A stretch of DNA of 64,000 nt from Dudresnaya verticillata (GCA_977862235.1 OZ374557.1:3286001-3350000); one strand, 5' to 3'. Positions 1 to 58,703 are shown, numbered from the stretch's first letter. Notes: generated from the letters alone by a model not told the origin. Translations and numbers: made by a program.

Positions 1-1807
1 GAGAAATGTGTCGAACACGTCGGTAATATAATACAGTCACAAGCGGAGCACACTTTGCCAAGTAGCTCCCACGCTTGGAGTAATGAAACTCTCAGGTGAT
101 GATGGGATCACCTGGACTGAAGAAGAAAAGTTGAAACTTGAAGTTGAAAAGTTGATTCTTGATAGTTGAACGTCTTTTTGACGCGGGATGTTCTGGCACC
201 AGGTTCTACCTAGTCACCCCTAGGAGTCGGACTCCTGGCCCCCGGATATGATTCTCCGGGTGAAATGCGTCTTTCAGCAGCCCTTTCGTGTCGTGCGCAC
301 ACAGACACGAAGTATGCAATCCTTACGAGACGTCCACCTTATGGGTACTAATTCAAAACGAGTGTTCACCACACGAACAGGTCCAGTCTCTTGCAGGAAT
401 GGAACTAGGCCCAACCGTGTCAAGGTTCTGGATCTTACTGGAGGCTGCTCCCCTAGGCCAACGAGGTCCTGACTTAACGAGAGTCACCACGCACAACACT
501 CAACCTCTCAGCAAGCTCACGGACCAAGACAACAGCGGACGAGAGCCTCGAGAACTCTCTCACAAAATCAGAGACACAAGCCGACACAGTGGGATAGGGA
601 CCACTTTCAACAGACAACAAGCAGACAGGACAGGACACAAGCCGACAGGACAGGACACAAGCAGACAGGACAGGGCAGGACGGGACAGGACAGTATCAAG
701 AATGAAAAGAAAAAGGAAGAAGGTTGCAGCGAAGCGATGAAGTCTGCGTAGGTCGACCTTCTGGGCCCATAACCTGAAAAGGAATATGGAGAGGTTGAAG
801 TTGAACAAGATGAGAAATGGAAGTCGCTTGACTTCGTTTACTGCAGTCGACCATCCGACATGGCTTATATCAGCTTTTCGGATGAGTTGCTGCGTGAACA
901 CAAACAAAACAAATCATTAAAGAAACGCCCAAAATCCCTATCATCAAATGGGCGGGAAAAAGTAAAGCAATTAAATCTACCAAATCATGCTCTCAGCACA
1001 CTCACATCCGCCACCAAAATGGGCGGGAACTTGCACACCAGTGTTGCTAACTGCTGACATCAGCAATCCCTCTTGCGACTGCATTTCCTGCCATCCATAT
1101 GTACTCCAACTTTGGGCGGGAACGTGAAAGTATCGAGTGTCCCCGCATGGCTGCTGTCGGACAACACTGCACACCACGTGGCCGCACTTACCAGCTCAAG
1201 TCCGTCCATGAATATCCAACTTGGATCATTGACCACGTAATCACCCAGATTTGCCTACGTGGCAGCTGTAAACCAACATATCGGCCGCACGACAGCTACG
1301 TGATAACTGTGAACCAACGTGTCGGCCGCACGACAGCTACGTGCCAACTGTAAACCAACGTGTCGGCCGCACAACAACTGCATCTGCTGATATCACAAGT
1401 CAGGCTCCACGTAGCGCAAGTCCCTGCAGTACCAACTCGGACGCCATCAGCACATTGCATGGCAGGTTCATGTGTACTTGTGGAGTACAGTGCGAGTCAT
1501 ACCAACACCATTCCATGCCATACCACGTGCATCCATGTGGTCCAATCAGATCGTTCCACTTGGCCGTTCCTGTTATAACCGCCAATTCCAGCACAACACT
1601 TGTAAGCCATATAGACCATGGAGGCGGTTTGTAACAACCAATCAGAAGCCCGTTTCACGTTGCTTTTGCAAAAGGCCTAAATGCGCCGTGATTTTGGAAG
1701 CCCGGAAAAAGGGCTGTCGTCTCCGGAAGGTTTGGTGACAGCGTGCCAGGGTGCCATCTGGGGTGCCTGACCCGTGACGTGAGGCGCCAGCGACCATGTC
1801 CTCAACA
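1..1807 (-). mobile_element. Copia copy A (5' leader + PBS + 5' LTR 775-1807; remainder off the left edge), inserted in RT of copy H
   Basis: Reverse-complement LTR (TGAAAAGG at 775 to CCTCAACA at 1807, 1033 bp); PBS at 761-774; right flank AGCCC resumes minus-strand RT sequence. Confidence 0.92.
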
Positions 1808-2299
1808 AGCCCCAAGTACAGAAGTGACCCGATCATCTGCTGGTACGTCTCAACCGACACGACGGCCTTGTCCTCTTCGGCGGCAAGTCCAGTGAAGAAA
1901 GACTCAACCATCGGCGTACAAGCCGGCTTAGAGTTCTGAAGTCCAAATCGACGAAGAACACTTTCCGTGTAGACCTGTTGAGTCATCTTGAGGGACACAA
2001 ATCTGCCATCAGAGTCTAGCTTCCATCCAAGCTCGACTCCGAGGAAGAGGTCAACCCCTTCAGACAGCCGTAGATCGTAGAGGCCCTGCAGTTCCTTAAC
2101 AATGGCGTCTCTCTCCGCCTTTGTGGGTGCGAGGATGAGCAAGTCATCAACGTACACCAAGATGTATGCGTATCCAGAAGACTTGGATTTGCGACGAAAC
2201 ACGCAAGGTGCACTTGGCAATTCCTCAAACATCATCCTAGCAAGGTCACCACACAGCTTGGTGTGCCAAGCTCGGTGAGCCTGTTTTAGCCCATACATA

Positions 2300-3373
2300 T
2301 GTTGAGGACATGGTCGCTGGCGCCTCACGTCACGGGTCAGGCACCCCAGATGGCACCCTGGCACGCTGTCACCAAACCTTCCGGAGACGACAGCCCTTTT
2401 TCCGGGCTTCCAAAATCACGGCGCATTTAGGCCTTTTGCAAAAGCAACGTGAAACGGGCTTCTGATTGGTTGTTACAAACCGCCTCCATGGTCTATATGG
2501 CTTACAAGTGTTGTGCTGGAATTGGCGGTTATAACAGGAACGGCCAAGTGGAACGATCTGATTGGACCACATGGATGCACGTGGTATGGCATGGAATGGT
2601 GTTGGTATGACTCGCACTGTACTCCACAAGTACACATGAACGTGCCATGCAGTGTGCTGATGGCGTCCGAGTTGGTACTGCAGGGACTTGCGCTACGTGG
2701 AGCCTGACTTGTGATATCAGCAGATGCAGTTGTTGTGCGGCCGACACGTTGGTTTACAGTTGGCACGTAGCTGTTGTGCGGCCGACACGTTGGTTTACAG
2801 TTGGCACGTAGCTGTCGTGCGGCCGACACGTTGGTTTACAGTTATCACGTAGCTGTCGTGCGGCCGATACGTTGGTTTACAGCTGCCACGTAGGCAAATC
2901 TGGGTGATTACGTGGTCAATGATCCAAGTTGGATATTCATGGACGGACTTGAGCTGGTAAGTGCGGCCACGTGGTGTGCAGTGTTGTCCGACAGCAGCCA
3001 TGCGGGGACACTCGATACTTTCACGTTCCCGCCCAAAGTTGGAGTCCATATGGATGGCAGGAAATGCGGTCGCAAGAGGGATTGCTGATGTCAGCAGTTA
3101 GCAACACTGGTGTGCAAGTTACCGCCCATTTTGGTGGCGGATGTGAGTGTGCTGAGAGCATGATTTGGTAGATTTAATTGCTTTACTTTTTCCCGCCCAT
3201 TTGATGATAGGGATTTTGGGCGTTTCTTTAATGATTTGTTTTGTTTGTGTTCACGCAGCAACTCATCCGAAAAGCTGATATAAGCCATGTCGGATGGTCG
3301 ACTGCAGTAAACGAAGTCAAGCGACTTCCATTTCTCATCTTGTTCAACTCCAACCTCTCCATATTCCTTTTCA
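2300..3373 (+). repeat. Representative LTR (1074-bp class). 18 near-complete LTRs: 775-1807, 2300-3373, 7600-8673, 13927-15000, 16028-17060, 18872-19904, 22021-23053, 25527-26518, 28572-29606, 31228-32260, 37678-38710, 39982-41055, 41056-42018, 43208-44281, 44507-45498, 46163-47154, 52408-53399, 57630-58703
   Basis: TG...CA termini (TGTTGAGGACATGG / CCATATTCCTTTTCA); internal sides adjoin a PBS or PPT; near-identical copies on both strands. Confidence 0.96.
2731..2893 (+). repeat. 41-bp tandem repeat within the LTR (2-4 copies depending on LTR)
   Basis: Unit TGTYGTGCGGCCGACACGTTGGTTTACAGTTGGCACGTAGC at 2731, 2772, 2813, 2854; accounts for LTR lengths 992/1033/1074. Confidence 0.93.
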
Positions 3374-3387
3374 GGTTATGGGCCCAG
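3374..3387 (+). promoter_or_regulatory. Primer binding site complementary to the anticodon stem-loop of initiator tRNA-Met (half-tRNA priming); also at 761-774, 13913-13926, 19905-19918, 25513-25526, 32425-32438, 39968-39981, 44282-44295, 52394-52407, 57616-57629
   Basis: GGTTATGGGCCCAG directly after the LTR terminal CA; reverse complement CTGGGCCCATAACC contains the CAT anticodon loop of tRNAiMet. Confidence 0.9.
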
Positions 3388-3473
3388 AAGGTCGACCTAC
3401 GCAGACTTCATCGCTTCGCTGCAACCTTCTTCCTTTTTCTTTTCATTCTTGATACTGTCCGGTCCCGTCCTGG

Positions 3474-3535
3474 CCTGTCCTGTCTGCTTGTGTCCTGTCC
3501 TGTCGGCTTGTGTCCTGTCCTGTCTGCTTGTTGTC
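3474..3535 (+). repeat. Pyrimidine-rich ~20-bp tandem repeat in the 5' leader (present in every leader)
   Basis: CTTGTGTCCTGTCCTGTC(T/G)G repeated about 3 times, built from TCCTG units. Confidence 0.8.
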
Positions 3536-4309
3536 TGTTGAAAGTGGTCCCTATCCCACTGTGTCGGCTTGTGTCTCTGATTTTGTGAGAGAGTTCTCGA
3601 GGCTCTCGTCCGCTGTTGTCTTGGTCCGTGAGCTTGCTGAGAGGTTGAGTGTTGTGCGTGGTGACTCTCGTTAAGTCAGGACCTCGTTGGCCTAGGGGAG
3701 CAGCCTCCAGTAAGATCCAGAACCTTGACACGGTTGGGCCTAGTTCCATTCCTGCAAGAGACTGGACCTGTTCGTGTGGTGAACACTCGTTTTGAGTTAG
3801 TACCCATAAGGTGGACGTCTCGTAAGGATTGCATACTTCGTGTCTGTGTGCGCACGACACGAAAGGGCTGCTGAAAGACGCATTTCACCCGGAGAATCAT
3901 ATCCGGGGGCCAGGAGTCCGACTCCTAGGGGTGACTAGGTAGAACCTGGTGCCAGAACATCCCGCGTCAAAAAGACGTTCAACTATCAAGAATCAACTTT
4001 TCAACTTCAAGTTTCAACTTTTCTTCTTCAGTCCAGGTGATCCCATCATCACCTGAGAGTTTCATTACTCCAAGCGTGGGAGCTACTTGGCAAAGTGTGC
4101 TCCGCTTGTGACTGTATTATATTACCGACGTGTTCGACACATTTCTCAGTTTCGTCGTCACGTCTTCGTTGTGTGAGCTGCACTGCTCTGCTTAACACGA
4201 CTATTACCCTCTGGGCATCGACACTGTTGCACTAACAGCACTGCCCCAAGTTTACCAAGTTTTCTAAAACTATTCAAGTTATCTCTTCTCACCACCAGTC
4301 GCAACAGCG

Positions 4310-7300
4310 ATGACTGATACCGAAGCCGAGATGGATACTTCGAGCGGGGTCAAGATACCCCGTTTCCACGGCAGGAGAGATGACGACTACAGTCTCTGGC
4401 GTCATCGCCTTCGTGCCGCATGCCGCATCAAAGGGGTTTGGAATGTTGTCCACACCTCAAACGACACACCGAGCAGCTCACAGTCAACTGGAGAGGCCTC
4501 AGCGGATACTTCCATTCTTCACGCCAGAACCTTGGCCAAACGTGAGAAGGCTTGCGGGATCATTATCTCCGCACTTGGTGATGCTCCGCTTCGTGTCGTT
4601 ATGGAGGTTGATGATGACCCCAAACGCATGCTGGAGCTATTGGACTCGCGCTATGCGTCCAGTCGAACCGTATCCCGTATCGCCGTACAGACCAAGCTAT
4701 TCCGTATGACGTACACCGGTCAGAATATGTCCAACTATGTCGACCAGTACACGTCACTGTTCGCCCAACTCGACCGCATGGGCAACGACTCGGCGATACC
4801 GGAGACACATAAGGCACCTATGCTGCTTGCTTCCATTGATCCGTCCTGCCACCTGGAGCCAACAGCTGCAGCTCTCCGCACCAAAGATGCTGCTGAGCTG
4901 ACTTGGGACTACGTCGCAACCACGCTGATCGATGAGTACAACGCCAAAGATTCTCATGGATCAAACACAGGTGGGAGATCCAGTAAGTCGAAGAGTCGTC
5001 GGAAGAAGAAAAAGAAGTCCGCGTCATCAGGTTCTCGCCAGCAACACAACCCGCTGGATGACAACGACGACTCCGATGACTCTTCTGATATTGAATCCAC
5101 CGTCCGTGCGTTGGCGGTTGCACTCAAGTCCGCCAAGCAGGCTCACTCCACCCCGAACCGGCACCTTCACTGTGATGTTTGCGACAAGGATGGACACACC
5201 GCGGATCGATGCTATCTCAATCCGGAAAATCCTAACAACAAGCTTCCTCCAAAGGTGCGACAGATGTTCACCAACCAGGGCAAAAAGGGCAACGCCAACT
5301 CGGCGGTAGCTGCATCTGGTAAGAATAATGGTAAATCTGCAAAGGTAGAAATCGCCGGTGCATCGGTTGAGATGACTACTGTTGTTCCTCCGAACGACCA
5401 AGGAACGTATGCCGACAGTGGAGCAACTGTGCATTGCTTCCACTCAATGACTTCTTTTGTACCGAGCTCAGTATCGCGCTGCGAAAAGCGTACTGTAGTG
5501 CTTGCGGACAAGTCGTCTGTCACCTCGGACCTATGTGGAGATGTGATTCTGCCGTTTGAGCATGCCAATATTCGGCTCAAGAAGGCCCTCTTCATCCCGC
5601 AGATGGGATACAATCTTGTCTCTACTGGGCGTTTGGCAGATAAAGGAATTGAATCCCACTTTCGCCGCTTGGACGTGCGCTTGGTACTCGACTCTGATGG
5701 GTACTATATTGGATCCGGTGTTCGCGATGCGAGTTCTGGAATGTACATGCTACCAGAACCCGAGCCGCACACTTCGGAGGAGCAAGTACTGGCTGTCCCC
5801 AGCACGCAGCAAACTACTGAGCTCTGGCATCGACGTCTTGCCCACATTAATTTTCGGGACTTGGCCAAAGTGCACGAGCATGTTGAGGGTGTTCCGGAGT
5901 TGGGCTCGACTCATGAAGTGTGTCGGGCTTGTAGACTTGGGAAAGCACACAAACAATCATTCCCAGGGCACTTCCGCCCGGCCAAAGCTGTCGGTGATCT
6001 CGTGCATTCCGACATTGTTGGTCCAATCCAGATCTCCTTTCCCGATCGTTTCCGGTATGCCACGACGTTTCTGGATGATAAATCCCGTTTCTTGGTCGTC
6101 GCATGTATGAGAAGTCGCCGTATGTTGAGTGCAGCATTTGATCAAGCTTCAGCAAAGTTTATCGAGCTTGGAGGAGCGGAAATAACAAAACTCCACTCAG
6201 ACGGGGCTCAGGAGTATTTGGCTTTGCAGAAAGATTTGGGAGGAGTTGGAGACAGTGGCAAATCCTTCTCCCCACCTTATACTCCGGAGCTCAATGGAAT
6301 CGCGGAAAGGGTGAACCGAACCATGGTGGAAGCTGCCCTGACTTTGCTGATCCAGGCTGATCTACCGGGATGTTTGTGGCCGTTTGCACTGAAGCATGTC
6401 AACTACGTGCGCAATCGGGTACCACACTCAACCGTTGGGGCTACGCCATACTCGGTCATGACAGGTGATGTTCCTGATTTAAAACATTTAAGAGTGTTTG
6501 GATGTGCTGCATATGTCCTAAGGCTCCCACGCGGATCCAAGTTCGAGTCTCGTGCACTTGAGGGGGTGCACTTGGAGACTCTAGAGCATGGGATCTACAG
6601 GGTATTGGTCACTGGCGGTGACGGTATACCTCGTGTGGTTGAGTCGCGGCATGTCACATTCGACGAGTCCAAATTCCCGGGTGCTCCAAGCCTGTTGGAA
6701 TATGGGCAGGACGAGGCAGATTCGGATGAAGATTACGAGTCTAACTCAGAGGCCTCTATTTGCAACTCGGACTCTGATGACGATGTATCGCTGGGTAACT
6801 TTGAGGATGAAGAGGATGCAATTGAAGTTGACACACCTTCTTCACCTCCACTACCTCCATCAGAACCCAGCTCATTCGAATCTGATGACACGGCTGAGGA
6901 AGAAAACGTCTCTGACAATCCTCCGGCTGGTGTGAGTTCAGACCCAGAACGCCACCAACAGAGTCGATATCCTCGTCGCCAACGTCGCCAGACGTCGAAA
7001 TGGTTTATGGCAAGCTCTGCACAAGCTGAACAACAGGTTGCCCTCACAACTGGAGATGAGCCCACTCTTCGAGAGGCCATGTCTGCCACTCCGGAGGAGC
7101 GCGGGTTGTGGCAATCTGCCATTGATGATGAGTTCGCATCCTTGGAATCCAAAGGCACTTGGGTCCGTGATGACAGTCCCGGTGCACAGCCGCTTCCAAC
7201 GCACGCCGTGCTGAAAGTTAAACGCAAGTCCGACGGGACCGTCGAGCGCTTCAAAGCGCGGGTCGTCGCTGGTGGAAACTTCCAGACGTATGGTGAAGAC

Positions 7301-7599
7301 TACATGGAAACATACGCCCCAGTTGTGTCGTTCTCGCTGGTGCGCATGTTCCTATACTTGGTACTGTGTTTGAACCTGTTTGTTGCACAGCTAGACGTGA
7401 AGACGGCTTTCCTGAATGGTGATCTGGCAGAACACGTGTGGGTAATGTCACCGCGTGGGATTCCTGGAAGGGAATCTCTCTGTTACAAACTTCTGAAAGC
7501 TATGTATGGGCTAAAACAGGCTCACCTAGCTTGGCACACCAAGCTGTGTGGTGACCTTGCTAGGATGATGTTTGAGGAATTGCCAAGTGCACCTTGCGT
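4310..7599 (+). pseudogene. Gag-Pol of copy B, 5' part (Gag, PR, IN, N-terminal RT), interrupted by C
   Basis: Matches the 1440-aa protein up to ...PSAPC, then reads into an inverted LTR. Confidence 0.92.
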
Positions 7600-10500
7600 T
7601 GAAAAGGAATATGGAGAGGTTGGAGTTGAACAAGATGAGAAATGGAAGTCGCTTGACTTCGTTTACTGCAGTCGACCATCCGACATGGCTTATATCAGCT
7701 TTTCGGATGAGTTGCTGCGTGAACACAAACAAAACAAATCATTAAAGAAACGCCCAAAATCCCTATCATCAAATGGGCGGGAAAAAGTAAAGCAATTAAA
7801 TCTACCAAATCATGCTCTCAGCACACTCACATCCGCCACCAAAATGGGCGGGAACTTGCACACCAGTGTTGCTAACTGCTGACATCAGCAATCCCTCTTG
7901 CGACCGCATTTCCTGCCATCCATATGGACTCCAACTTTGGGCGGGAACGTGAAAGTATCGAGTGTCCCCGCATGGCTGCTGTCGGACAACACTGCACACC
8001 ACGTGGCCGCACTTACCAGCTCAAGTCCGTCCATGAATATCCAACTTGGATCATTGACCACGTAATCACCCAGATTTGCCTACGTGGCAGCTGTAAACCA
8101 ACGTATCGGCCGCACGACAGCTACGTGATAACTGTAAACCAACGTGTCGGCCGCACGACAGCTACGTGCCAACTGTAAACCAACGTGTCGGCCGCACAAC
8201 AGCTACGTGCCAACTGTAAACCAACGTGTCGGCCGCACAACAACTGCATCTGCTGATATCACAAGTCAGGCTCCACGTAGCGCAAGTCCCTGCAGTACCA
8301 ACTCGGACGCCATCAGCACACTGCATGGCACGTTCATGTGTACTTGTGGAGTACAGTGCGAGTCATACCAACACCATTCCATGCCATACCACGTGCATCC
8401 ATGTGGTCCAATCAGATCGTTCCACTTGGCCGTTCCTGTTATAACCGCCAATTCCAGCACAACACTTGTAAGCCATATAGACCATGGAGGCGGTTTGTAA
8501 CAACCAATCAGAAGCCCGTTTCACGTTGCTTTTGCAAAAGGCCTAAATGCGCCGTGATTTTGGAAGCCCGGAAAAAGGGCTGTCGTCTCCGGAAGGTTTG
8601 GTGACAGCGTGCCAGGGTGCCATCTGGGGTGCCTGACCCGTGACGTGAGGCGCCAGCGACCATGTCCTCAACACTCCTCCTCGATGGCTCCTCCAAGTCC
8701 AACCCTTGGTAGAATCCTATTGAGCAAAGTGGGCCCGAGTGGCTTTGTCAGCAAGTCCGCGTCGTTGTCTTCTGACGGCACATACACCACTTCCAGAACA
8801 GAGTCGGCGACAAGTTCGCGAATGAAGTGAACACGAACGTCGATATGCTTGGCACGACCAGACGGACAGCGTTCTCCAGTAGCCCAATTGATGGCAGACT
8901 GGTTGTCTGATCTCAATGGAACGGGGCCTTCGACGTTCAAGTCGGCCTCCTTCAGCACTCGCGTGACCCAAACCGTCTCTTTCGCAGCCAGAGTCATTGC
9001 ATAGTACTCCGACTCGCAAGTTGAGAGAGCAACAGTTGACTGCTTCTTGGATCCCCAAATACACACTGCATCTCCCAGTTTCACCATGTAACCAGACATA
9101 GATTTTCGGTCTGTGGTGTCACCGGCATAGTCAGCGTCCACATAAGCTTGGATACGAGTGGTTCCGGACTGGTACGTAACTCCATGCTTGTGAGTGCCTC
9201 GGAGATATCGCAGAACCCTCTTTGCACCGCGGTGACAGTACGCAGTTGGAGCCTTCTGGAACCGTGCGAGAATAAGCACAGAGGCCAAAATGTCCAGCCT
9301 TGTGCGAAGCCCCAAGTACAGAAGTGACCCGATCATCTGCTGGTACGTCTCAACCGACACGACGGCCTTGTCCTCTTCGGCGGCAAGTCCAGTGAAGAAA
9401 GACTCAACCATCGGCGTACAAGCCGGCTTAGAGTTCTGAAGTCCAAATCGACGAAGAACACTTTCCGTGTAGACCTGTTGAGTCATCTTGAGGGACACAA
9501 ATCTGCCATCACAGTCTAGCTTCCATCCAAGCTCGACTCCGAGGAAGAGGTCAACCCCTTCAGACAGCCGTAGATCGTAGAGGCCCTGCAGTTCCTTAAC
9601 AATGGCGTCTCTCTCCGCCTTTGTGGGCGCGAGGATGAGCAAGTCATCAACGTACACCAAGATGTATGCGTATCCAGAAGACTTGGATTTGCGACGAAAC
9701 ACGCAAGGTGCACTTGGCAATTCCTCAAACATCATCCTAGCAAGGTCACCACACAGCTTGGTGTGCCAAGCTAGGTGAGCCTGTTTTAGCCCATACATAG
9801 CCTTCAGAAGTTTGTAACAGAGAGATTCCCTTCCAGGAATCCCACGCGGTGACATTACCCACACGTGTTCTGCCAGATCACCATTCAGGAAAGCCGTCTT
9901 CACGTCTAGCTGTGCAACAAACAGGTTCAAACACAGTACCAAGTATAGGAACATGCGCACCAGCGAGAACGACACAACTGGGGCGTATGTTTCCATGTAG
10001 TCTTCACCATACGTCTGGAAGTTTCCACCAGCGACGACCCGCGCTTTGAAGCGCTCGACGGTCCCGTCGGACTTGCGTTTAACTTTCAGCACGGCGTGCG
10101 TTGGAAGCGGCTGTGCACCGGGACTGTCATCACGGACCCAAGTGCCTTTGGATTCCAAGGATGCGAACTCATCATCAATGGCAGATTGCCACAACCCGCG
10201 CTCCTCCGGAGTGGCAGACATGGCCTCTCGAAGAGTGGGCTCATCTCCAGTTGTGAGGGCAACCTGTTGTTCAGCTTGTGCAGAGCTTGCCATAAACCAT
10301 TTCGACGTCTGGCGACGTTGGCGACGAGGATATCGACTCTGTTGGTGGCGTTCTGGGTCTGAACTCACACCAGCCGGAGGATTGTCAGAGACGTTTTCTT
10401 CCTCAGCCGTGTCATCAGATTCGAATGAGCTGGGTTCTGATGGAGGTAGTGGAGGTGAAGAAGGTGTGTCAACTTCAATTGCATCCTCTTCATCCTCAAA

Positions 10501-29500: not shown

Positions 29501-29606
29501 TCCGAAAAGCTGATATAAGCCATGTCGGATGATCGACTGCAGTAAACGAAGTCAAGCGACTTCCATTTCTCATCTTGTTCAACTTCAACCTCTCCATATT
29601 CCTTTT
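26558..29606 (+). mobile_element. 5'-truncated copy E (IN C-terminus, RT, RNase H, 3' LTR lacking its terminal CA)
   Basis: Starts abruptly at TGGCGGTGAC; LTR 28572-29606 ends CCTTTT and is fused to host GCCACTG; no 5-bp TSD. Confidence 0.87.
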
Positions 29607-45498: not shown

Positions 45499-46162
45499 TT
45501 CTCGAGGCTCTCGTCCGCTGTTGTCTTGGTCCGTGAGCTTGCTGAGAGGTTGAGTGTTGTGCGTGGTGACTCTCGTTAAGTCAGGACCTCGTTGGCCTAG
45601 GGGAGCAGCCTCCAGTAAGATCCAGAACCTTGACACGGTTGGGCCTAGTTCCATTCCTGCAAGAGACTGGACCTGTTCGTGTGGTGAACACTCGTTTTGA
45701 GTTAGTACCCATAAGGTGGACGTCTCGTAAGGATTGCATACTTCGTGTCTGTGTGCGCACGACACGAAAGGGCTGCTGAAAGACGCATTTCACCCGGAGA
45801 ATCATATCCGGGGGCCAGGAGTCCGACTCCTAGGGGTGACTAGGTAGAACCTGGTGCCAGAACATCCCGCGTCAAAAAGACGTTCAACTATCAAGAATCA
45901 ACTTTTCAACTTCAAGTTTCAACTTTTCTTCTTCAGTCCAGGTGATCCCATCATCACCTGAGAGTTTCATTACTCCAAGCGTGGGAGCTACTTGGCAAAG
46001 TGTGCTCCCCTTGTGACTGTATTATATTACCGACGTGTTCGACACATTTCTCAGTTTCGTCGTCACGTCTTCGTTGTGTGAGCTGCACTGCTCTGCTTAA
46101 CACGACTATTACCCTCTGGGCATCGGCACTGTAGCACTAACAGCACTGCCCCAAGTTCACCA

Positions 46163-49100
46163 TGAAAAGGAATATGGAGAGGTTGGAGTTGAACAAGATG
46201 AGAAATGGAAGTCGCTTGACTTCGTTTACTGCAGTCGACCATCCGACAAGGCTTATATCAGCTTTTCGGATGAGTTGCTGCGTGAACACAAACAAAACAA
46301 ATCATTAAAGAAACGCCCAAAATCCCTATCATCAAATGGGCGGGAAAAAGTAAAACAATTAAATCTACCAAATCATACTCTCAGCACACTCACATCCGCC
46401 ACCAAAATGGGCGGGAACTTGCACACCAGTGTTGCTAACTGCTGACATCAGCAATCCCTCTTGCGACCGCATTTCCTGCCATCCATATGTACTCCAACTT
46501 TGGGCGGGAACTCGAAAGTATCGAGTGTCCCCGCATGGCTGCTGTCGGACAACGCTGCACACCACGTGGCCGCACTTACCAGCTCAAGTCCGTCCATGAA
46601 TATCCAACTTGGATCATTGACCACGTAATCACCCAGATTTGCCTACGTGGCAGCTGTAAACCAACGTGTCGGCCGCACGACAGCTACGTGGCAACTGTAA
46701 ACCGACGTGTCGGCCGCACGACAACTGCATCTGCTGATATCACAAGCCAGGCTCCACGTAGCGCAAGTCCCTGCAGTACCAACTCGGACGCCATCAGCAC
46801 ATTGCATGGCACGTTCATATGTACTTGTGGAGTACAGTGCGCGTCATACCAACACCATTCCATGCCATACCACGTGCATCCATGTGGTCCAATCAGATCG
46901 TTCCACTTGGCCGTTCCTGTTATAACCGCCAATTCCAGCACAACACTTGTAAGCCATATAGACCATGGAGGCGGTTTGTAACAACCAATCAGAAGCCCGT
47001 TTCACGTTGCTTTTGCAAAAGGCCTAAATGCGCCGTGATTTTGGAAGCCCGGAAAAAGGGCTGTCGTCTCCGGAAGGTTTGGTGAAAGCGTGCCAGGGTA
47101 CCATCTGGGGTACCTGACCCGTGACGTGAGGCGCCAGCGACCATGTCCTCAACACTCCTCCTCGATGGCTCCTCCAAGTCCAACCCTTGGTAGAATCCTA
47201 TTGAGCAAAGTGGGCCCGAGTGGCTTTGTCAGCAAGTCCGCGTCGTTGTCTTCTGACGGCACATACACCACTTCCAGAACAGAGTCGGCGACAAGTTCGC
47301 GAATGAAGTGTACACGAACGTCGATGTGCTTGGCACGACCAGACGGACAGCGTTCTCCAGTAGCCCAATTGATGGCAGACTGGTTGTCTGATCTCAATGG
47401 AACCGGGCCTTCGACGTTCAAGTCGGCCTCCTTCAGCACTCGCGTGACCCAAACCGTCTCTTTCGCAGCCAGAGTCATTGCATAGTACTCCGACTCGCAA
47501 GTTGAGAGAGCAACAGTTGACTGCTTCTTGGATCCCCAAATACACACTGCATCTCCCAGTTTCACCATGTAACCAGACATAGATTTTCGGTCTGTGGTGT
47601 CACCGGCATAGTCAGCGTCCACATAAGCTTGGATACGAGTGCTTCCGGACTGGTACGTAACTCCATGCTTGTGAGTGCCTCGGAGATATCGCAGAACCCT
47701 CTTTGCACCGCGGTGACAGTACGCAGTTGGAGCCTTCTGGAACCGTGCGAGGATAAGCACAGAGGCCAAAATGTCCAGCCTTGTGCGAAGCCCCAAGTAC
47801 AGAAGTGACCCGATCATCTGCTGGTACGTCTCAACCGACACGACGGCCTTGTCCTCTTCGGCGGCAAGTCCAGTGAAGAAAGACTCAACCATCGGCGTAC
47901 AAGCCGGCTTAGAGTTCTGAAGTCCAAATCGACGAAGAACACTTTCCGTGTAGACCTGTTGAGTCATCTTGAGGGACACAAATCTGCCATCAGAGTCTAG
48001 CTTCCATCCAAGCTCGACTCCGAGGAAGAGGTCAACCCCTTCAGACAGCCGTAGATCGTAGAGGCCCTGCAGCTCCTTAACAATGGCGTCTCTCTCCGCC
48101 TTTGTGGGCGCGAGGATGAGCAAGTCATCAACGTACACCAAGATGTATGCGTATCCAGAAGACTTGGATTTGCGACGAAACACGCAAGGTGCACTTGGCA
48201 ATTCCTCAAACATCATCCTAGCAAGGTCACCACACAGCTTGGTGTGCCAAGCTAGGTGAGCCTGTTTTAGCCCATACATAGCCTTCAGAAGTTTGTAACA
48301 GAGAGATTCCCTTCCAGGAATCCCACGCGGTGACATTACCCACACGTGTTCTGCCAGATCACCATTCAGGAAAGCCGTCTTCACGTCTAGCTGTGCAACA
48401 AACAGGTTCAAACACAGTACCAAGTATAGGAACATGCGCACCAGCGAGAACGACACAACTGGGGCGTATGTTTCCATGTAGTCTTCACCATACGTCTGGA
48501 AGTTTCCACCAGCGACGACCCGCGCTTTGAAGCGCTCGACCGTCCCGTCGGACTTGCGTTTAACTTTCAGCACGGCGTGCGTTGGAAGCGGCTGTGCACC
48601 GGGACTGTCATCACGGACCCAAGTGCCTTTGGATTCCAAGGATGCGAACTCATCATCAATGGCAGATTGCCACAACCCGCGCTCCTCCGGAGTGGCAGAC
48701 ATGGCCTCTCGAAGAGTGGGCTCATCTCCCGTTGTGAGGGCAACCTGTTGTTCAGCTTGTGCAGAGCTCGCCATAAACCATTTCGACGTCTGGCGACGTT
48801 GGCGACGAGGATATCGACTCTGTTGCTGGCGTTCTGGATCTGAACTCACACCAGCCGGAGGACTGTCAGAGACGTTTTCTTCCTCAGCCGTGTCATCAGA
48901 TTCGAATGAGCTGGGTTCTGATGGAGGTAGTGGAGGTGAAGAAGGTGTGTCAACTTCAATCGCATCCTCTTCATCCTCAAAGTTACCCAGCGACACATCG
49001 TCATCAGAGTCCGAGTTGCAAATAGAGGCCTCTGAGTTAGACTCGTAATCTTCATCCGAATCTGCCTCGTCCTGCCCATATTCCAACAGGCTTGGAGCAC

Positions 49101-52100
49101 CCGGGAATTTGGACTCGTCGAATGTGACATGCCGCGACTCAACCACACGAGGTATACCGTCACCGCCAGTGACCAATATCCTGTAGATCCCATGCTCTAG
49201 AGTCTCCAAGTGCACCCCCTCAAGTGCACGAGACTCGAACTTGGATCCGCGTGGGAGCCTTAGGACATATGCAGCACATCCAAACACTCTTAAATGTTTT
49301 AAATCAGGAACATCACCTGTCATGACCGAGTATGGCGTAGCCCCAACGGTTGAGTGTGGTACCCTATTGCGCACGTAGTTGACATGCTTCAGTGCAAACG
49401 GCCACAAACATCCCGGTAGATCAGCCTGGATCAGCAAAGTCAGGGCAGCTTCCACCATGGTTCGGTTCACCCTTTCCGCGATTCCATTGAGCTCCGGAGT
49501 ATAAGGTGGGGAGAAGGATTTGCCACTGTCTCCAACTCCTCCCAAATCTTTCTGCAAAGCCAAATACTCCTGAGCCCCGTCTGAGTGGAGTTTTGTTATT
49601 TCCGCTCCTCCAAGCTCGATAAACTTTGCTGAAGCTTGATCAAATGCTGCACTCAACATACGGCGACTTCTCATACATGCGACGACCAAGAAACGGGATT
49701 TGTCATCCAGAAACGTCGTGGCATACCGGAAACGATCGGGAAAGGAGATCTGGATTGGACCCACAATGTCGGAATGCACGAGATCACCGACAGCTTTGGC
49801 CAGGCGGAAGTGCCCTGGGAATGATTGTTTGTGTGCTTTCCCAAGTCTACAAGCCCGACACACTTCATGAGTGGAGCCCAACTCCGGAACACCCTCAACA
49901 TGCTCGTGCACTTTGGCCAAGTCCCGAAAATTAATGTGGGCAAGACGTCGATGCCACAGCTCAGTAGTTTGCTGCGTGCTGGGGACAGCCAGTACTTGCT
50001 CCTCCGAAGTGTGCGGCTCGGGTTCTGGTAGCATGTACATTCCAGAACTCGCATCGCGAACACCGGATCCAATATAGTACCCATCAGAGTCGAGTACCAA
50101 GCGCACGTCCAAGCGGCGAAAGTGGGATTCAATTCCTTTATCTGCCAAACGCCCAGTAGAGACAAGATTGTATCCCATCTGCGGGATGAAGAGGGCCTTC
50201 TTGAGCCGAATATTGGCATGCTCAAACGGCAGAATCACATCTCCACATAGGTCTGAGGTGACAGACGACTTGTCCGCAAGCACTACAGTACGCTTTTCGC
50301 AGCGTGATACTGAGCTCGGTACAAAAGAAGTCATTGAGTGGAAGCAATGCACAGTTGCTCCACTGTCGGCATACGTTCCTTGGTCGTTCGGAGGAACAAC
50401 AGTAGTCATCTCAACCGATGCACCGGCGATTTCTACCTTTGCAGATTTACCATTATTCTTACCAGATGCAGCTACCGCCGAGTTGGCGTTGCCCTTTTTG
50501 CCCTGGTTGGTGAACATCTGTCGCACCTTTGGAGGAAGCTTGTTGTTAGGATTTTCCGGATTTAGATAGCATCGATCCGCGGTGTGTCCATCCTTGTCGC
50601 AAACATCACAGTGAAGGTGCCGGTTCGGGGTGGAGTGAGCCTGCTTGGCGGACTTGAGTGCAACCGCCAACGCACGGACGGTGGATTCAATATCAGAAGA
50701 GTCATCGGAGTCGTCGTTGTCATCCAGCGTGTTGTGTTGCTGGCGAGAACCTGACGACGCGGACTTCTTTTTCTTCTTGCGACGACTCTTCGACTTACTG
50801 GATCTCCCACCTGCGTTTGATCCATGAGAATCTTTGGCGTTGTACTCATCGATCAGCGTGGTTGCGACGTAGTCCCAAGTCAGCTCAGCAGCATCTTTGG
50901 TGCGAAGAGCTGCAGCTGTTGACTCCAGGTGGCAGGACGGATCAATGGAAGCAAGCAGCATAGGTGCCTTATGTGTCTCCGGTATCGCCGAGTCGTTGCC
51001 CATGCGGTCGAGTTGGGCGAACAGTGACGTGTACTGGTCGACATAGTTGGACATATTCTGACCGGTGTACGTCATACGGAATAGCTTGGTCTGTACGGCG
51101 ATACGGGATACGGTTCGACTGGACGCATAGCGCGAGTCCAATAGCTCCAGCATGCGTTTGGGGTCATCATCAACCTCCATAACGACACGAAGCGGAGCAT
51201 CACCAAGTGCGGAGATAATGATCCCGCAAGCCTTCTCACGTTTGGCCAAGGTTCTGGCGTGAAGAATGGAAGTATCCGCTGAGGCCTCTCCAGTTGACTG
51301 TGAGCTGCTCGGTGTGTCGTTTGAGGTGTGGACAACATTCCAAACCCCTTTGATGCGGCATGCGGCACGAAGGCGATGACGCCAGAGACTGTAGTCGTCA
51401 CCTCTCCTGCCGTGGAAACGGGGTATCTTGACCCCGCTCGAAGTATCCATCTCGGCTTCGGTATCAGTCATCGCTGTTGCGACTGGTGGTGAGAAGAGAT
51501 AACTTGAATAGTTTTAGAAAACTTGGTAAACTTGGGGCAGTGCTGTTAGTGCAACAGTGTCGATGCCCAGAGGGTAATAGTCGTGTTAAGCAGAGCAGTG
51601 CAGCTCACACAACGAAGACGTGACGACGAAACTGAGAAATGTGTCGAACACGTCGGTAATATAATACAGTCACAAGCGGAGCACACTTTGCCAAGTAGCT
51701 CCCACGCTTGGAGTAATGAAACTCTCAGGTGATGATGGGATCACCTGGACTGAAGAAGAAAAGTTGAAACTTGAAGTTGAAAAGTTGATTCTTGATAGTT
51801 GAACGTCTTTTTGACGCGGGATGTTCTGGCACCAGGTTCTACCTCGTCACCCCTAGGAGTCGGACTCCTGGCCCCCGGATATGATTCTCCGGGTGAAATG
51901 CGTCTTTCAGCAGCCCTTTCGTGTCGTGCGCACACAGACACGAAGTATGCAATCCTTACGAGACGTCCACCTTATGGGTACTAACTCAAAACGAGTGTTC
52001 ACCACACGAACAGGTCCAGTCTCTTGCAGGAATGGAACTAGGCCCAACCGTGTCAAGGTTCTGGATCTTACTGGAGGCTGCTCCCCTAGGCCAACGAGGT

Positions 52101-53399
52101 CCTGACTTAACGAGAGTCACCACGCACAACACTCAACCTCTCAGCAAGCTCACGGACCAAGACAACAGCGGACGAGAGCCTCGAGAACTCTCTCACAAAA
52201 TCAGAGACACAAGCCGACACAGTGGGATAGGGACCACTTTCAACAGACAACAAGCAGACAGGACAGGACACAAGCCGACAGGACAGGACACAAGCAGACA
52301 GGACAGGCCAGGACGGGACCGGACAGTATCAAGAATGAAAAGAAAAAGGAAGAAGGTTGCAGCGAAGCGATGAAGTCTGCGTAGGTCGACCTTCTGGGCC
52401 CATAACCTGAAAAGGAATATGGAGAGGTTGGAGTTGAACAAGATGAGAAATGGAAGTCGCTTGACTTCGTTTACTGCAGTCGACCATCCGACAAGGCTTA
52501 TATCAGCTTTTCGGATGAGTTGCTGCGTGAACACAAACAAAACAAAACATTAAAGAAACGCCCAAAATCCCTATCATCAAATGGGCGGGAAAAAGTAAAA
52601 CAATTAAATCTACCAAATCATACTCTCAGCACACTCACATCCGCCACCAAAATGGGCGGGAACTTGCACACCAGTGTTGCTAACTGCTGACATCAGCAAT
52701 CCCTCTTGCGACCGCATTTCCTGCCATCCATATGTACTCCAACTTTGGGCGGGAACTCGAAAGTATCGAGTGTCCCCGCATGGCTGCTGTCGGACAACGC
52801 TGCACACCACGTGGCCGCACTTACCAGCTCAAGTCCGTCCATGAATATCCAACTTGGATCATTGACCACGTAATCACCCAGATTTGCCTACGTGGCAGCT
52901 GTAAACCAACGTGTCGGCCGCACGACAGCTACGTGGCAACTGTAAACCGACGTGTCGGCCGCACGACAACTGCATCTGCTGATATCACAAGCCAGGCTCC
53001 ACGTAGCGCAAGTCCCTGCAGTACCAACTCAGACGCCATCAGCACATTGCATGGCACGTTCATATGTACTTGTGGAGTACAGTGCGCGTCATACCAACAC
53101 CATTCCATGCCATACCACGTGCATCCATGTGGTCCAATCAGATCGTTCCACTTGGCCGTTCCTGTTATAACCGCCAATTCCAGCACAACACTTGTAAGCC
53201 ATATAGACCATGGAGGCGGTTTGTAACAACCAATCAGAAGCCCGTTTCACGTTGCTTTTGCAAAAGGCCTAAATGCGCCGTGATTTTGGAAGCCCGGAAA
53301 AAGGGCTCTCGTCTCCGGAAGGTTTGGTGAAAGCGTGCCAGGGTACCATCTGGGGTACCTGACCCGTGACGTGAGGCGCCAGCGACCATGTCCTCAACA
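46163..53399 (-). mobile_element. Full-length copia copy L (7237 bp; LTRs 46163-47154 and 52408-53399)
   Basis: Two 992-bp LTRs and an intact ORF; flanks CACCA and ATTTT do not match. Confidence 0.95.
47149..51471 (-). CDS. Ty1/copia Gag-Pol polyprotein, 1440 aa (copy L)
   Basis: Uninterrupted ORF with all catalytic motifs. Confidence 0.97.
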   Translation of the reverse strand: MTDTEAEMDTSSGVKIPRFHGRRGDDYSLWRHRLRAACRIKGVWNVVHTSNDTPSSSQSTGEASADTSILHARTLAKREKACGIIISALGDAPLRVVMEVDDDPKRMLELLDSRYASSRTVSRIAVQTKLFRMTYTGQNMSNYVDQYTSLFAQLDRMGNDSAIPETHKAPMLLASIDPSCHLESTAAALRTKDAAELTWDYVATTLIDEYNAKDSHGSNAGGRSSKSKSRRKKKKKSASSGSRQQHNTLDDNDDSDDSSDIESTVRALAVALKSAKQAHSTPNRHLHCDVCDKDGHTADRCYLNPENPNNKLPPKVRQMFTNQGKKGNANSAVAASGKNNGKSAKVEIAGASVEMTTVVPPNDQGTYADSGATVHCFHSMTSFVPSSVSRCEKRTVVLADKSSVTSDLCGDVILPFEHANIRLKKALFIPQMGYNLVSTGRLADKGIESHFRRLDVRLVLDSDGYYIGSGVRDASSGMYMLPEPEPHTSEEQVLAVPSTQQTTELWHRRLAHINFRDLAKVHEHVEGVPELGSTHEVCRACRLGKAHKQSFPGHFRLAKAVGDLVHSDIVGPIQISFPDRFRYATTFLDDKSRFLVVACMRSRRMLSAAFDQASAKFIELGGAEITKLHSDGAQEYLALQKDLGGVGDSGKSFSPPYTPELNGIAERVNRTMVEAALTLLIQADLPGCLWPFALKHVNYVRNRVPHSTVGATPYSVMTGDVPDLKHLRVFGCAAYVLRLPRGSKFESRALEGVHLETLEHGIYRILVTGGDGIPRVVESRHVTFDESKFPGAPSLLEYGQDEADSDEDYESNSEASICNSDSDDDVSLGNFEDEEDAIEVDTPSSPPLPPSEPSSFESDDTAEEENVSDSPPAGVSSDPERQQQSRYPRRQRRQTSKWFMASSAQAEQQVALTTGDEPTLREAMSATPEERGLWQSAIDDEFASLESKGTWVRDDSPGAQPLPTHAVLKVKRKSDGTVERFKARVVAGGNFQTYGEDYMETYAPVVSFSLVRMFLYLVLCLNLFVAQLDVKTAFLNGDLAEHVWVMSPRGIPGRESLCYKLLKAMYGLKQAHLAWHTKLCGDLARMMFEELPSAPCVFRRKSKSSGYAYILVYVDDLLILAPTKAERDAIVKELQGLYDLRLSEGVDLFLGVELGWKLDSDGRFVSLKMTQQVYTESVLRRFGLQNSKPACTPMVESFFTGLAAEEDKAVVSVETYQQMIGSLLYLGLRTRLDILASVLILARFQKAPTAYCHRGAKRVLRYLRGTHKHGVTYQSGSTRIQAYVDADYAGDTTDRKSMSGYMVKLGDAVCIWGSKKQSTVALSTCESEYYAMTLAAKETVWVTRVLKEADLNVEGPVPLRSDNQSAINWATGERCPSGRAKHIDVRVHFIRELVADSVLEVVYVPSEDNDADLLTKPLGPTLLNRILPRVGLGGAIEEEC

Positions 53400-56300
53400 A
53401 TTTTGGGCGTTTCTTTAATGATTTGTTTTGTTTGTGTTCACGCAGCAACTCATCCGAAAAGCTGATATAAGCCATGTCGGATGGTCGACTGCAGTAAACG
53501 AAGTCAAGCGACTTCCATTTCTCATCTTGTTCAACTCCAACCTCTCCATATTCCTTTTCACCCACACGTGTTCTGCCAGATCACCATTCAGGAAAGCCGT
53601 CTTCACGTCTAGCTGTGCAACAAACAGGTTCAAACACAGTACCAAGTATAGGAACATGCGCACCAGCGAGAACGACACAACTGGGGCGTATGTTTCCATG
53701 TAGTCTTCACCATACGTCTGGAAGTTTCCACCAGCGACGACCCGCGCTTTGAAGCGCTCGACCGTCCCGTCGGACTTGCGTTTAACTTTCAGCACGGCGT
53801 GCGTTGGAAGCGGCTGTGCACCGGGACTGTCATCACGGACCCAAGTGCCTTTGGATTCCAAGGATGCGAACTCATCATCAATGGCAGATTGCCACAACCC
53901 GCGCTCCTCCGGAGTGGCAGACATGGCCTCTCGAAGAGTGGGCTCATCTCCCGTTGTGAGGGCAACCTGTTGTTCAGCTTGTGCAGAGCTCGCCATAAAC
54001 CATTTCGACGTCTGGCGACGTTGGCGACGAGGATATCGACTCTGTTGCTGGCGTTCTGGATCTGAACTCACACCAGCCGGAGGACTGTCAGAGACGTTTT
54101 CTTCCTCAGCCGTGTCATCAGATTCGAATGAGCTGGGTTCTGATGGAGGTAGTGGAGGTGAAGAAGGTGTGTCAACTTCAATCGCATCCTCTTCATCCTC
54201 AAAGTTACCCAGCGACACATCGTCATCAGAGTCCGAGTTGCAAATAGAGGCCTCTGAGTTAGACTCGTAATCTTCATCCGAATCTGCCTCGTCCTGCCCA
54301 TATTCCAACAGGCTTGGAGCACCCGGGAATTTGGACTCGTCGAATGTGACATGCCGCGACTCAACCACACGAGGTATACCGTCACCGCCAGTGACCAATA
54401 TCCTGTAGATCCCATGCTCTAGAGTCTCCAAGTGCACCCCCTCAAGTGCACGAGACTCGAACTTGGATCCGCGTGGGAGCCTTAGGACATATGCAGCACA
54501 TCCAAACACTCTTAAATGTTTTAAATCAGGAACATCACCTGTCATGACCGAGTATGGCGTAGCCCCAACGGTTGAGTGTGGTACCCTATTGCGCACGTAG
54601 TTGACATGCTTCAGTGCAAACGGCCACAAACATCCCGGTAGATCAGCCTGGATCAGCAAAGTCAGGGCAGCTTCCACCATGGTTCGGTTCACCCTTTCCG
54701 CGATTCCATTGAGCTCCGGAGTATAAGGTGGGGAGAAGGATTTGCCACTGTCTCCAACTCCTCCCAAATCTTTCTGCAAAGCCAAATACTCCTGAGCCCC
54801 GTCTGAGTGGAGTTTTGTTATTTCCGCTCCTCCAAGCTCGATAAACTTTGCTGAAGCTTGATCAAATGCTGCACTCAACATACGGCGACTTCTCATACAT
54901 GCGACGACCAAGAAACGGGATTTGTCATCCAGAAACGTCGTGGCATACCGGAAACGATCGGGAAAGGAGATCTGGATTGGACCCACAATGTCGGAATGCA
55001 CGAGATCACCGACAGCTTTGGCCGGGCGGAAGTGCCCTGGGAATGATTGTTTGTGTGCTTTCCCAAGCCTACAAGCCCGACACACTTCATGAGTGGAGCC
55101 CAACTCCGGAACACCCTCAACATGCTCGTGCACTTTGGCCAAGTCCCGAAAATTAATGTGGGCAAGACGTCGATGCCACAGCTCAGTAGTTTGCTGCGTG
55201 CTGGGGACAGCCAGTACTTGCTCCTCCGAAGTGTGCGGCTCGGGTTCTGGTAGCATGTACATTCCAGAACTCGCATCGCGAACACCGGATCCAATATAGT
55301 ACCCATCAGAGTCGAGTACCAAGCGCACGTCCAAGCGGCGAAAGTGGGATTCAATTCCTTTATCTGCCAAACGCCCAGTAGAGACAAGATTGTATCCCAT
55401 CTGCGGGATGAAGAGGGCCTTCTTGAGCCGAATATTGGCATGCTCAAACGGCAGAATCACATCTCCACATAGGTCTGAGGTGACAGACGACTTGTCCGCA
55501 AGCACTACAGTACGCTTTTCGCAGCGCGATACTGAGCTCGGTACAAAAGAAGTCATTGAGTGGAAGCAATGCACAGTTGCTCCACTGTCGGCATACGTTC
55601 CTTGGTCGTTCGGAGGAACAACAGTAGTCATCTCAACCGATGCACCGGCGATTTCTACCTTTGCAGATTTACCATTATTCTTACCAGATGCAGCTACCGC
55701 CGAGTTGGCGTTGCCCTTTTTGCCCTGGTTGGTGAACATCTGTCGCACCTTTGGAGGAAGCTTGTTGTTAGGATTTTCCGGATTTAGATAGCATCGATCC
55801 GCGGTGTGTCCATCCTTGTCGCAAACATCACAGTGAAGGTGCCGGTTCGGGGTGGAGTGAGCCTGCTTGGCGGACTTGAGTGCAACCGCCAACGCACGGA
55901 CGGTGGATTCAATATCAGAAGAGTCATCGGAGTCGTCGTTGTCATCCAGCGGGTTGTGTTGCTGGCGAGAACCTGACGACGCGGACTTCTTTTTCTTCTT
56001 CCGACGACTCTTCGACTTACTGGATCTCCCACCTGCGTTTGATCCATGAGAATCTTTGGCGTTGTACTCATCGATCAGCGTGGTTGCGACGTAGTCCCAA
56101 GTCAGCTCAGCAGCATCTTTGGTGCGAAGAGCTGCAGCTGTTGACTCCAGGTGGCAGGACGGATCAATGGAAGCAAGCAGCATAGGTGCCTTATGTGTCT
56201 CCGGTATCGCCGAGTCGTTGCCCATGCGGTCGAGTTGGGCGAACAGTGACGTGTACTGGTCGACATAGTTGGACATATTCTGACCGGTGTACGTCATACG

Positions 56301-58703
56301 GAATAGCTTGGTCTGTACGGCGATACGGGATACGGTTCGACTGGACGCATAGCGCGAGTCCAATAGCTCCAGCATGCGTTTGGGGTCATCATCAACCTCC
56401 ATAACGACACGAAGCGGAGCATCACCAAGTGCGGAGATAATGATCCCGCAAGCCTTCTCACGTTTGGCCAAGGTTCTGGCGTGAAGAATGGAAGTATCCG
56501 CTGAGGCCTCTCCAGTTGACTGTGAGCTGCTCGGTGTGTCGTTTGAGGTGTGGACAACATTCCAAACCCCTTTGATGCGGCATGCGGCACGAAGGCGATG
56601 ACGCCAGAGACTGTAGTCGTCACCTCTCCTGCCGTGGAAACGGGGTATCTTGACCCCGCTCGAAGTATCCATCTCGGCTTCGGTATCAGTCATCGCTGTT
56701 GGGACTGATGGTGAGAAGAGATAACTTGAATAGTTTTAGAAAACTTGGTAAACTTGGGGCAGTGCTGTTAGTGCAACAGTGTCGATGCCCAGAGGGTAAT
56801 AGTCGTGTTAAGCAGAGCAGTGCAGCTCACACAACGAAGACGTGACGACGAAACTGAGAAATGTGTCGAACACGTCGGTAATATAATACAGTCACAAGCG
56901 GAGCACACTTTGCCAAGTAGCTCCCACGCTTGGAGTAATGAAACTCTCAGGTGATGATGGGATCACCTGGACTGAAGAAGAAAAGTTGAAACTTGAAGTT
57001 GAAAAGTTGATTCTTGATAGTTGAACGTCTTTTTGACGCGGGATGTTCTGGCACCAGGTTCTACCTAGTCACCCCTAGGAGTCGGACTCCTGGCCCCCGG
57101 ATATGATTCTCCGGGTGAAATGCGTCTTTCAGCAGCCCTTTCGTGTCGTGCGCACACAGACACGAAGTATGCAATCCTTACGAGACGTCCACCTTATGGG
57201 TACTAACTCAAAACGAGTGTTCACCACACGAACAGGTCCAGTCTCTTGCAGGAATGGAACTAGGCCCAACCGTGTCAAGGTTCTGGATCTTACTGGAGGC
57301 TGCTCCCCTAGGCCAACGAGGTCCTGACTTAACGAGAGTCACCACGCACAAAATTCAACCTCTCAGCAAGCTCACGGACCAAGACAACAGCGGACGAGAG
57401 CCTCGAGAACTCTCTCACAAAATCAGAGACACAAGCCAACACAGTGGGATAGGGACCACTTTCAACAGACAACAAGCAGACAGGACAGGACACAAGCCGA
57501 CAGGACAGGACACAAGCAGACAGGACAGGCCAGGACGGGACCGGACAGTATCAAGAATGAAAAGAAAAAGGAAGAAGGTTGCAGCGAAGCGATGAAGTCT
57601 GCGTAGGTCGACCTTCTGGGCCCATAACCTGAAAAGGAATATGGAGAGGTTGAAGTTGAACAAGATGAGAAATGGAAGTCGCTTGACTTCGTTTACTGCA
57701 GTCGACCATCCGACATGGCTTATATCAGCTTTTCGGATGAGTTGCTGCGTGAACACAAACAAAACAAATCATTAAAGATACGCCCAAAGTCCCTATCATC
57801 AAATGGGCGGGAAAAAGTAAAGCAATTAAATCTACCAAATCATGCTCTCAGCACACTCACATCCGCCACCAAAATGGGCGGGAACTTGCACACCAGTGTT
57901 GCTAACTGCTGACATCAGCAATCCCTCTTGCGACCGCATTTCCTGCCATCCATATGTACTCCAACTTTGGGCGGGAACGTGAAAGTATCGAGTGTCCCCG
58001 CATGGCTGCTGTCGGACAACACTGCACACCACGTGGCCGCACTTACCAGCTCAAGTCCGTCCATGAATATCCAACTTGGATCATTGACCACGTAATCACC
58101 CAGATTTGCCTACGTGGCAGCTGTAAACCAACGTATCGGCCGCACGACAGCTACGTGATAACTGTAAACCAACGTGTCGGCCGCACGACAGCTACGTGCC
58201 AACTGTAAACCAACGTGTCGGCCGCACAACAGCTACGTGCCAACTGTAAACCAACGTGTCGGCCGCACAACAACTGCATCTGCTGATATCACAAGTCAGG
58301 CTCCACGTAGCGCAAGTCCCTGCAGTACCAACTCGGACGCCATCAGCACATTGCATGGCACGTTCATGTGTACTTGTGGAGTACAGTGCGAGTCATACCA
58401 ACACCATTCCATGCCATACCACGTGCATCCATGTGGTCCAATCAGATCGTTCCACTTGGCCGTTCCTGTTATAACCGCCAATTCCAGCACAACACTTGTA
58501 AGCCATATAGACCATGGAGGCGGTTTGTAACAACCAATCAGAAGCCCGTTTCACGTTGCTTTTGCAAAAGGCCTAAATGCGCCGTGATTTTGGAAGCCCG
58601 GAAAAAGGGCTGTCGTCTCCGGAAGGTTTGGTGACAGCGTGCCAGGGTGCCATCTGGGGTGCCTGACCCGTGACGTGAGGCGCCAGCGACCATGTCCTCA
58701 ACA

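Follow-up and report, generated by a model that had tools for sequence, protein, structure and literature searches.

Deep self-nesting of a single copia retrotransposon family, probably in a red-algal genome: probable targeted insertion and a possible centromere-type domain

We analyzed a DNA stretch of 64,000 nucleotides (GCA_977862235.1, OZ374557.1:3286001-3350000), here called the window, in which a single Ty1/copia retrotransposon family with an element of about 7.4 kb occupies positions 1-58703, as seen by self-comparison of the window, with its copies inserted into one another to five visible levels. Insertion into this locus was in all likelihood targeted. Because analogous transposon-cluster centromeres have been published, we lean, if only slightly, towards the reading that the nest lies in a centromere-type domain, where the integrase would be directed to the CENH3 centromere of its host, probably a red alga.

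As reference we used copy C, the sole complete copy with identical long terminal repeats (LTRs). Compared with C, 40 segments tile positions 1-58703 with no base uncovered and none doubly covered, and therefore no other family lies inside the nest; the mean divergence was 0.81% (413 substitutions in 51,302 bases). The nest holds at least 12 near-identical copies, with 25.3 kb in plus and 33.4 kb in minus orientation. LTR termini define 14 target sites, 13 within the family and one, that of the outermost copy, in a Gypsy element. The five visible levels run I>G>H>B>C. G-in-I (the LTR end of G adjoins the 3' LTR of I at position 1045) and H-in-G, like A-in-H, are each documented by a single LTR-terminus junction, since the opposite ends lie beyond the left edge of the window. 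Eight inserts have both ends in the window, and five of these carry matching 5-bp target-site duplications (TSDs, Table 1). The remaining three, C, L and E, have none, and C sits in B between host positions 5300 and 5301 with no net duplication. TSDs and host coordinates are consistent over inserts of 1.0 to 14.9 kb. Tandem amplification, or a satellite array derived from a transposable element (TE), was rejected since every target site differs and both strands are used. These results bear out the initial annotation, which had described one copia family over 58.7 kb with no other inside it, a depth of five levels and five matching TSDs left by integrase rather than by tandem amplification. It had also placed every copy except the outermost inside another copy; this holds for 13 of the 14 sites marked by LTR ends, the outermost being in Gypsy.

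Table 1. Copies, remnants and outer host in the window, in order of position (names of copies as used in the text)
Feature	Position	Strand	Description
Copy A	1-1807	-	5' LTR 775-1807 (3-unit variant) and 5' internal part, leaves the window; LTR end adjoins H at element position 5693
Copy H	1808-26518	-	pieces 1808-2299, 17208-18871, 23054-25526; 5' LTR 25527-26518; carries X/B, D and A; LTR end adjoins G at 3998
X/B chimera	2300-17207	+	TSD ACATA; one haplotype in the 5' LTR and 5' part, a different one in the 3' part and its LTR (16028-17060)
Copy C	7600-15000	-	complete, 7401 bp; identical 1074-bp LTRs, TG...CA; gag-pol frame of 1454 amino acids at 8668-13032; primer-binding site (PBS) GGTTATGGGCCCAG; polypurine tract
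X 3'-LTR remnant	17061-17207	+	LTR positions 928-1074; outer TSD closes here
Copy D	18872-23053	+	TSD TGTGG; 1 site differs between the LTRs; about 3.1 kb deleted internally
Copy G	26519-41055	-	pieces 26519-26557, 29607-31227, 38711-39981; 5' LTR 39982-41055; host of H, E and F
E	26558-29606	+	3.05 kb, 5'-truncated near-copy of the 3' end of F; terminal CA and 5-bp TSD absent
Copy F	31228-38710	+	TSD CCAAT; intact open reading frame (ORF) 33319-37683; LTR positions 911-1074 doubled after 5' LTR (32261-32424)
Copy I, outermost visible	41056-58703	-	3' LTR piece 41056-42018; internal 42019-43207, 53561-57629; 5' LTR 57630-58703; LTRs unlike (chimera)
Copy J	43208-53560	+	TSD CCCAC; hosts K and L; positions 1959 to 3'-LTR 913 missing
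K	44507-45498	+	solo LTR; TSD TTCTC; oriented like its host J
Copy L	46163-53399	-	complete; ORF 47149-51513 intact; 3 sites differ between the LTRs; TSD absent
Gypsy chromovirus, decayed	58704-59900	+	integrase core and chromodomain, two frameshifts; interrupted by copy I; homology begins at 58704

How readily such a nest could arise by chance was calculated with a birth-process model, in which insertions are uniform over the target space and one founder has to reach at least 13 nested copies. The probability per founder was 1.8e-16 at a family share of 5%, 1.4e-5 at 50% and 4e-3 at 100%. Such tiny values mean that strong local targeting is needed, in agreement with the non-random insertion proposed before, and we consider targeted nesting highly probable. 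When insertion is uniform within a local domain, nests of 13-15 copies most commonly reach a depth of five levels. The 5.3-kb flank is free of copies, as had been reported, yet about 1.9 would be expected and their absence has P about 0.15, so the empty flank was rejected as a sign of self-targeting. Depth and flank both fit targeting of a domain, and recognition of the family by itself is therefore not required. The window does not tell whether the family targets chromatin of its own making or a CENH3 or heterochromatin domain that was already there.

Three of the 13 target sites within the family fall in one 18-bp segment of the LTR (positions 911, 914 and 928). The sequence there is T-rich and lies downstream of TTTCCCGC (890) and upstream of a TATA-like box (980). 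In a post hoc test this clustering gave P 0.008-0.016 under uniform insertion, and P = 0.29 if the 911 junction is dropped as a possible microhomology tandem duplication. The nine internal target sites are compatible with a uniform spread (Kolmogorov-Smirnov P = 0.71), and with 4 of 13 sites the LTRs are not over-targeted. Positions 911-928 were also considered as transcription starts, which was rejected since the TATA-like box lies downstream of them; two related LTRs have a similar distance from TATA to LTR end.

The frame of copy C encodes Gag, protease, integrase, an SH3-like domain and reverse transcriptase (RT) in copia order and has no chromodomain. The order gag-protease-integrase-RT, the TG...CA LTRs, the PBS, the polypurine tract and the 5-bp TSD all assign the element to Ty1/copia. 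Neither the Gypsy order nor the integrase chromodomain of CRM-type elements is present, and a chromodomain occurs only in the flanking Gypsy. The Gag part matched only generic copia Gag clusters in the ESM Atlas. An intact ORF is found in three copies (C, F and L). A TPSSPP stretch in the integrase seems to us to resemble the targeting motif of Ty5; a conserved motif of this kind was rejected, as the stretch is not kept among 25 relatives. The LTRs are 1074, 1033 or 992 bp long, as a 41-bp tandem repeat upstream of the TATA-like box is present in 4, 3 or 2 units. TTCCCGCC motifs occur three times in the LTR, at 727, 820 and 891 (for example within 13927-15000, minus strand), one of them inside the TTTCCCGC site, which we take to be E2F-like. 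The 5' untranslated region is long (13033-13926 in copy C, with about 940 bp between the LTR end and the first ATG) and contains short pyrimidine-rich tandem repeats. The PBS GGTTATGGGCCCAG is presumably complementary to the anticodon stem-loop of the initiator methionine tRNA (tRNA-iMet).

In C, D and F, the copies that have not recombined, the two LTRs are nearly identical (0, 1 and 1 differing sites), and these insertions are therefore very recent. We counted 121 variant alleles outside the LTR tandem array, 75 common to at least two copies and 46 private, and among the coding variants 43 were synonymous, 21 non-synonymous and none a stop. By their pattern these variants look like the signature of live, selected and active sub-lineages rather than of errors. 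Pieces of the element at about 99% identity and a depth of about 2-6 were present in two environmental sequencing runs (three runs were listed, two with small shares and none of them of RNA; the contigs come from one environmental study of low depth). There, 12 of the 15 run alleles that were checked equal alleles of other copies in the window (17 differences were listed, and two in the tandem array were excluded). Autointegration as the main source of the nest was rejected because the haplotypes of insert and host differ for D, F, K and L. No relative of the element was found among 84 pattern matches in viral contigs.

Several copies depart from simple insertion. The LTRs of the chimeras mismatch at 25 (B) and 22 (I) positions, one indel counted in each. 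The 5' LTR of B has the haplotype of the X remnant, where the outer TSD closes, and a second copy (the 3' half of B) ends in the X 3' LTR at 928. For this reason X would be the host, whose 3' LTR received a copy in the same orientation, with subsequent loss of the intervening DNA by recombination, and the order B>X of the initial annotation is better reversed. Copy L replaces 5.3 kb of J and is likely a recombinant of two insertions, because its LTRs also differ from each other. E, with one mismatch and a 4-bp insertion relative to the 3' end of F, carries a variant private to the 3' LTR of F and lacks both CA and TSD, and it is therefore likely a repair-templated copy of that end, not a product of integrase. 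The complete termini of C combined with the lack of target duplication suggest capture of cDNA at a break, a candidate integrase-independent event, or aberrant integration. All three same-orientation events visible on both sides (K, Y and the doubled end of F) are shortened, and all five opposite-orientation inserts bounded by LTRs (X, C, D, F and J) retain their two outer ends, so that the nest seems to be pruned quickly by direct-repeat recombination. The apparent chimerism of B and I and the irregularities of L, K, E and C are additions to what had been described from the window.

To place the element we made an RT-RNase H tree of 118 of 124 proteins, selected by length, with no Ty5 sequence among them. 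The element belongs to a clade of 38 proteins (support 0.996), separate from the plant, fungal and Chromochloris hits. The only labelled members of the clade are 'IDg' proteins of EukProt, with identities of up to 73%; we take this label to denote a red-algal gene set, which a literature search did not confirm. From 80 loci that were retrieved, three of the best-matching were checked as belonging to the same clade (L001, L002 and L037). In two of the three a short copia LTR with a PBS of this type (L001, 237-462; L002, 266-604) adjoins copia coding sequence that runs in the opposite orientation, whereas the whole of L037 is coding. The first 8 bases of the L001 LTR are those of the nest family.

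On the right the nest is bordered by the decayed Gypsy element, which is in part 78% identical to a relative. Among the 120 matches listed for its integrase, the only organism-named relatives are from Chondrus crispus (57-66%). Between the copia element and the flank DNA the sole match is one 22-nt stretch. The outer part, 59900-64000, is CpG-rich (observed/expected about 1.45) with 59% GC and long open frames; the two frames tested gave no Pfam match, and it is possibly an LTR or untranslated part of another element. All frames in the window are TE-derived or without assignment.

If the nest does lie in a centromere-type domain, its history can be pictured as follows. With an older Gypsy element as outer host, several active sub-lineages would have brought cDNA to the one locus within a short time, with the targeting signal perhaps in the C-terminal region of the integrase, by analogy with Tal1. 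Once the domain is composed of the element, every new copy would enter an older one, giving self-nesting without recognition of sequence. Recombination between same-orientation copies would remove DNA and leave the solo LTR K, the chimeras X/B, I and L, and possibly the doubled LTR end of F, while opposite-orientation inserts would remain whole. Occasionally breaks may be patched without integrase, as when E was putatively copied from its neighbour F and C captured without a TSD.

Several observations weigh against the centromere reading. The integrase tail, compared in 25 relatives, is a poorly conserved acidic linker without chromodomain or conserved motif. The florideophyte red-algal host is probable from relatives only, and the PBS type is common among unrelated copia loci (9 of 80), so it is not diagnostic. 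That nesting is a habit of the clade is hinted at by L001 and L002, which are short, older contigs whose insert and host may be of different families. No LTR-terminus joint or loose end appeared among the rows listed for the two environmental runs. LTR elements may exceed half of a red-algal genome (55% in one assembly), and same-family nesting is described in plants with no centromere targeting shown (PMC6911290). High LTR content, and the frequent occurrence of nested and same-family insertions where genomes are rich in repeats (PMC6911290), would also favour an untargeted burst, combined with selection or local re-insertion and tolerated in repeat deserts. This explanation would occupy an extreme tail and is most improbable: the family would have to add about as much DNA as the whole target space contains, other families are absent over 58.7 kb, and several distinct haplotypes contributed, which argues against a single local donor. 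We also find it very unlikely that separate loci or small nests were mis-joined in assembly through 99%-identical sequence. The lack of read support over junctions in the rows listed for the environmental runs, the unlike LTRs of B and I and the missing TSDs of C and L are what mis-joins could yield, but collapse or duplication would give identical copies and not new LTR-terminus junctions, TSDs agree with host coordinates over the whole range of insert sizes, and the haplotypes are distinct and partly confirmed externally. Mis-joins might change depth and length of the nest and would not abolish it.

Given targeting, the place could differ. A non-centromeric domain, such as a subtelomere, silent chromatin of another kind or a sex region that does not recombine, is an unlikely location. 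Ty5 targets Sir4 chromatin, our statistics require local targeting and do not indicate where, and a founder in an old, decayed Gypsy is typical of any repeat-dense setting. However, the young, deeply nested single-family copia clusters that have been published, as far as the sources go, are centromeric, and non-recombining regions usually accumulate mixed families whereas no other family interrupts this nest. Alternatively, the element could truly target itself, with a factor bound to the LTR promoter, or chromatin established by the copies, recruiting the integration complex at any copy. The cluster of sites at LTR 911, 914 and 928 and the copia-in-copia arrangement at two related loci would fit such a mechanism, which nevertheless seems quite unlikely to us, as the hot-spot test was post hoc and lost significance without the 911 junction, internal sites are uniform, LTRs are not over-targeted and the TTCCCGC motif is absent from both related LTRs (0 of 2). 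An extension of this idea, that a red-algal copia clade recognises its own copies through an LTR-promoter factor and so seeds and continually rebuilds a self-only centromere over an older Gypsy element, is doubtful to a similar degree; were it true, clusters of the clade would mark the centromeres of red seaweeds.

The architecture is already known from other organisms, and what may be new is the host lineage, probably a red alga. We found no red-algal precedent for such nests, and no described red-algal centromere architecture, in the literature searched, chiefly openly readable papers; a literature search for the wording of self-insertion gave no match, and the word centromere had no occurrence in the term-searched text of two red-algal genome papers. 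The value of the locus lies in this probable host lineage, in how pure and how deep the nest is, and in a hot spot that can be tested. If centromeric, the element would be a ready sequence marker for centromeres in probable florideophyte red algae, and an independent copia lineage would join the elements known to seek centromeres. In addition, the nest is a compact base-level record of cluster turnover by insertion, direct-repeat deletion and non-integrase repair, and allows a direct test of whether such elements follow centromeric chromatin or help to make it.

The closest counterpart is the Omega-state of a 325-genome centromere atlas, in which young nested clusters are built by one family that seeks centromeres, for example Athila in Geum urbanum, CRM in Bromus sterilis and Bryco-Copia in the moss Polytrichastrum (bioRxiv 10.64898/2026.09.17.752431). 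Other marks of such a centromere are about one cluster per chromosome where genes are scarce, and CENH3 or kinetochore enrichment or Hi-C contacts between chromosomes. As the Omega-state is described there, our nest shares with it young nested insertions of one family on both strands, distinct TSDs and near-identical LTRs. The atlas proposes a feedback loop, in which an element targets centromeric chromatin and carries it, much like that suggested in the initial annotation, and its main text has no occurrence of 'Rhodophyt' or 'red alga' (bioRxiv 10.64898/2026.09.17.752431). Five visible levels compare with Omega-state means of up to 2.86, but counting methods differ and the nest is known from sequence alone. 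CoLT of Phytophthora sojae is likewise a clustered single-ORF copia element with intact young copies, about 90% of them centromeric, and has been proposed as a centromere marker (PMC7082073). The centromeres there, compared by description, span 211-356 kb and contain many other TEs, in contrast to the one-family nest (PMC7082073). In the green algae Chromochloris zofingiensis and Chlorella sorokiniana, centromeres are reported to consist largely of one element, LTR/Copia, with Zepp clusters known too (PMC11005252); the single Chromochloris copia protein among our hits lies outside the clade of the element and may not be the centromeric one.

Ty5-like clusters mark budding-yeast centromeres, one per chromosome in some species, and their PBS is the complement of the tRNA-iMet anticodon stem (PMC12711049). 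The PBS in our nest is presumably of that type. The yeast clusters are often decayed (PMC12711049), unlike the nest, and any membership of our element in the Ty5 lineage is conjectural. Double insertion is on record for Drosophila. In plants, same-family nesting of LTR elements has been termed autoinsertion; as described, it has a modest bias, is more often seen in Gypsy, favours 3' untranslated regions and avoids LTRs and coding sequence (PMC6911290), whereas our nest is exclusive and both coding sequence and LTRs were entered. The Arabidopsis element Tal1/ALE4 is, like ours, a copia without chromodomain, and is reported to follow CENH3 chromatin through the C-terminal region of its integrase (PMC11735389). 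Tal1 enters satellite arrays, and no residue or motif equivalent to its targeting region was found in the integrase of the nest element across 25 relatives, but it illustrates how a chromodomain-less copia integrase could be led to a centromere.

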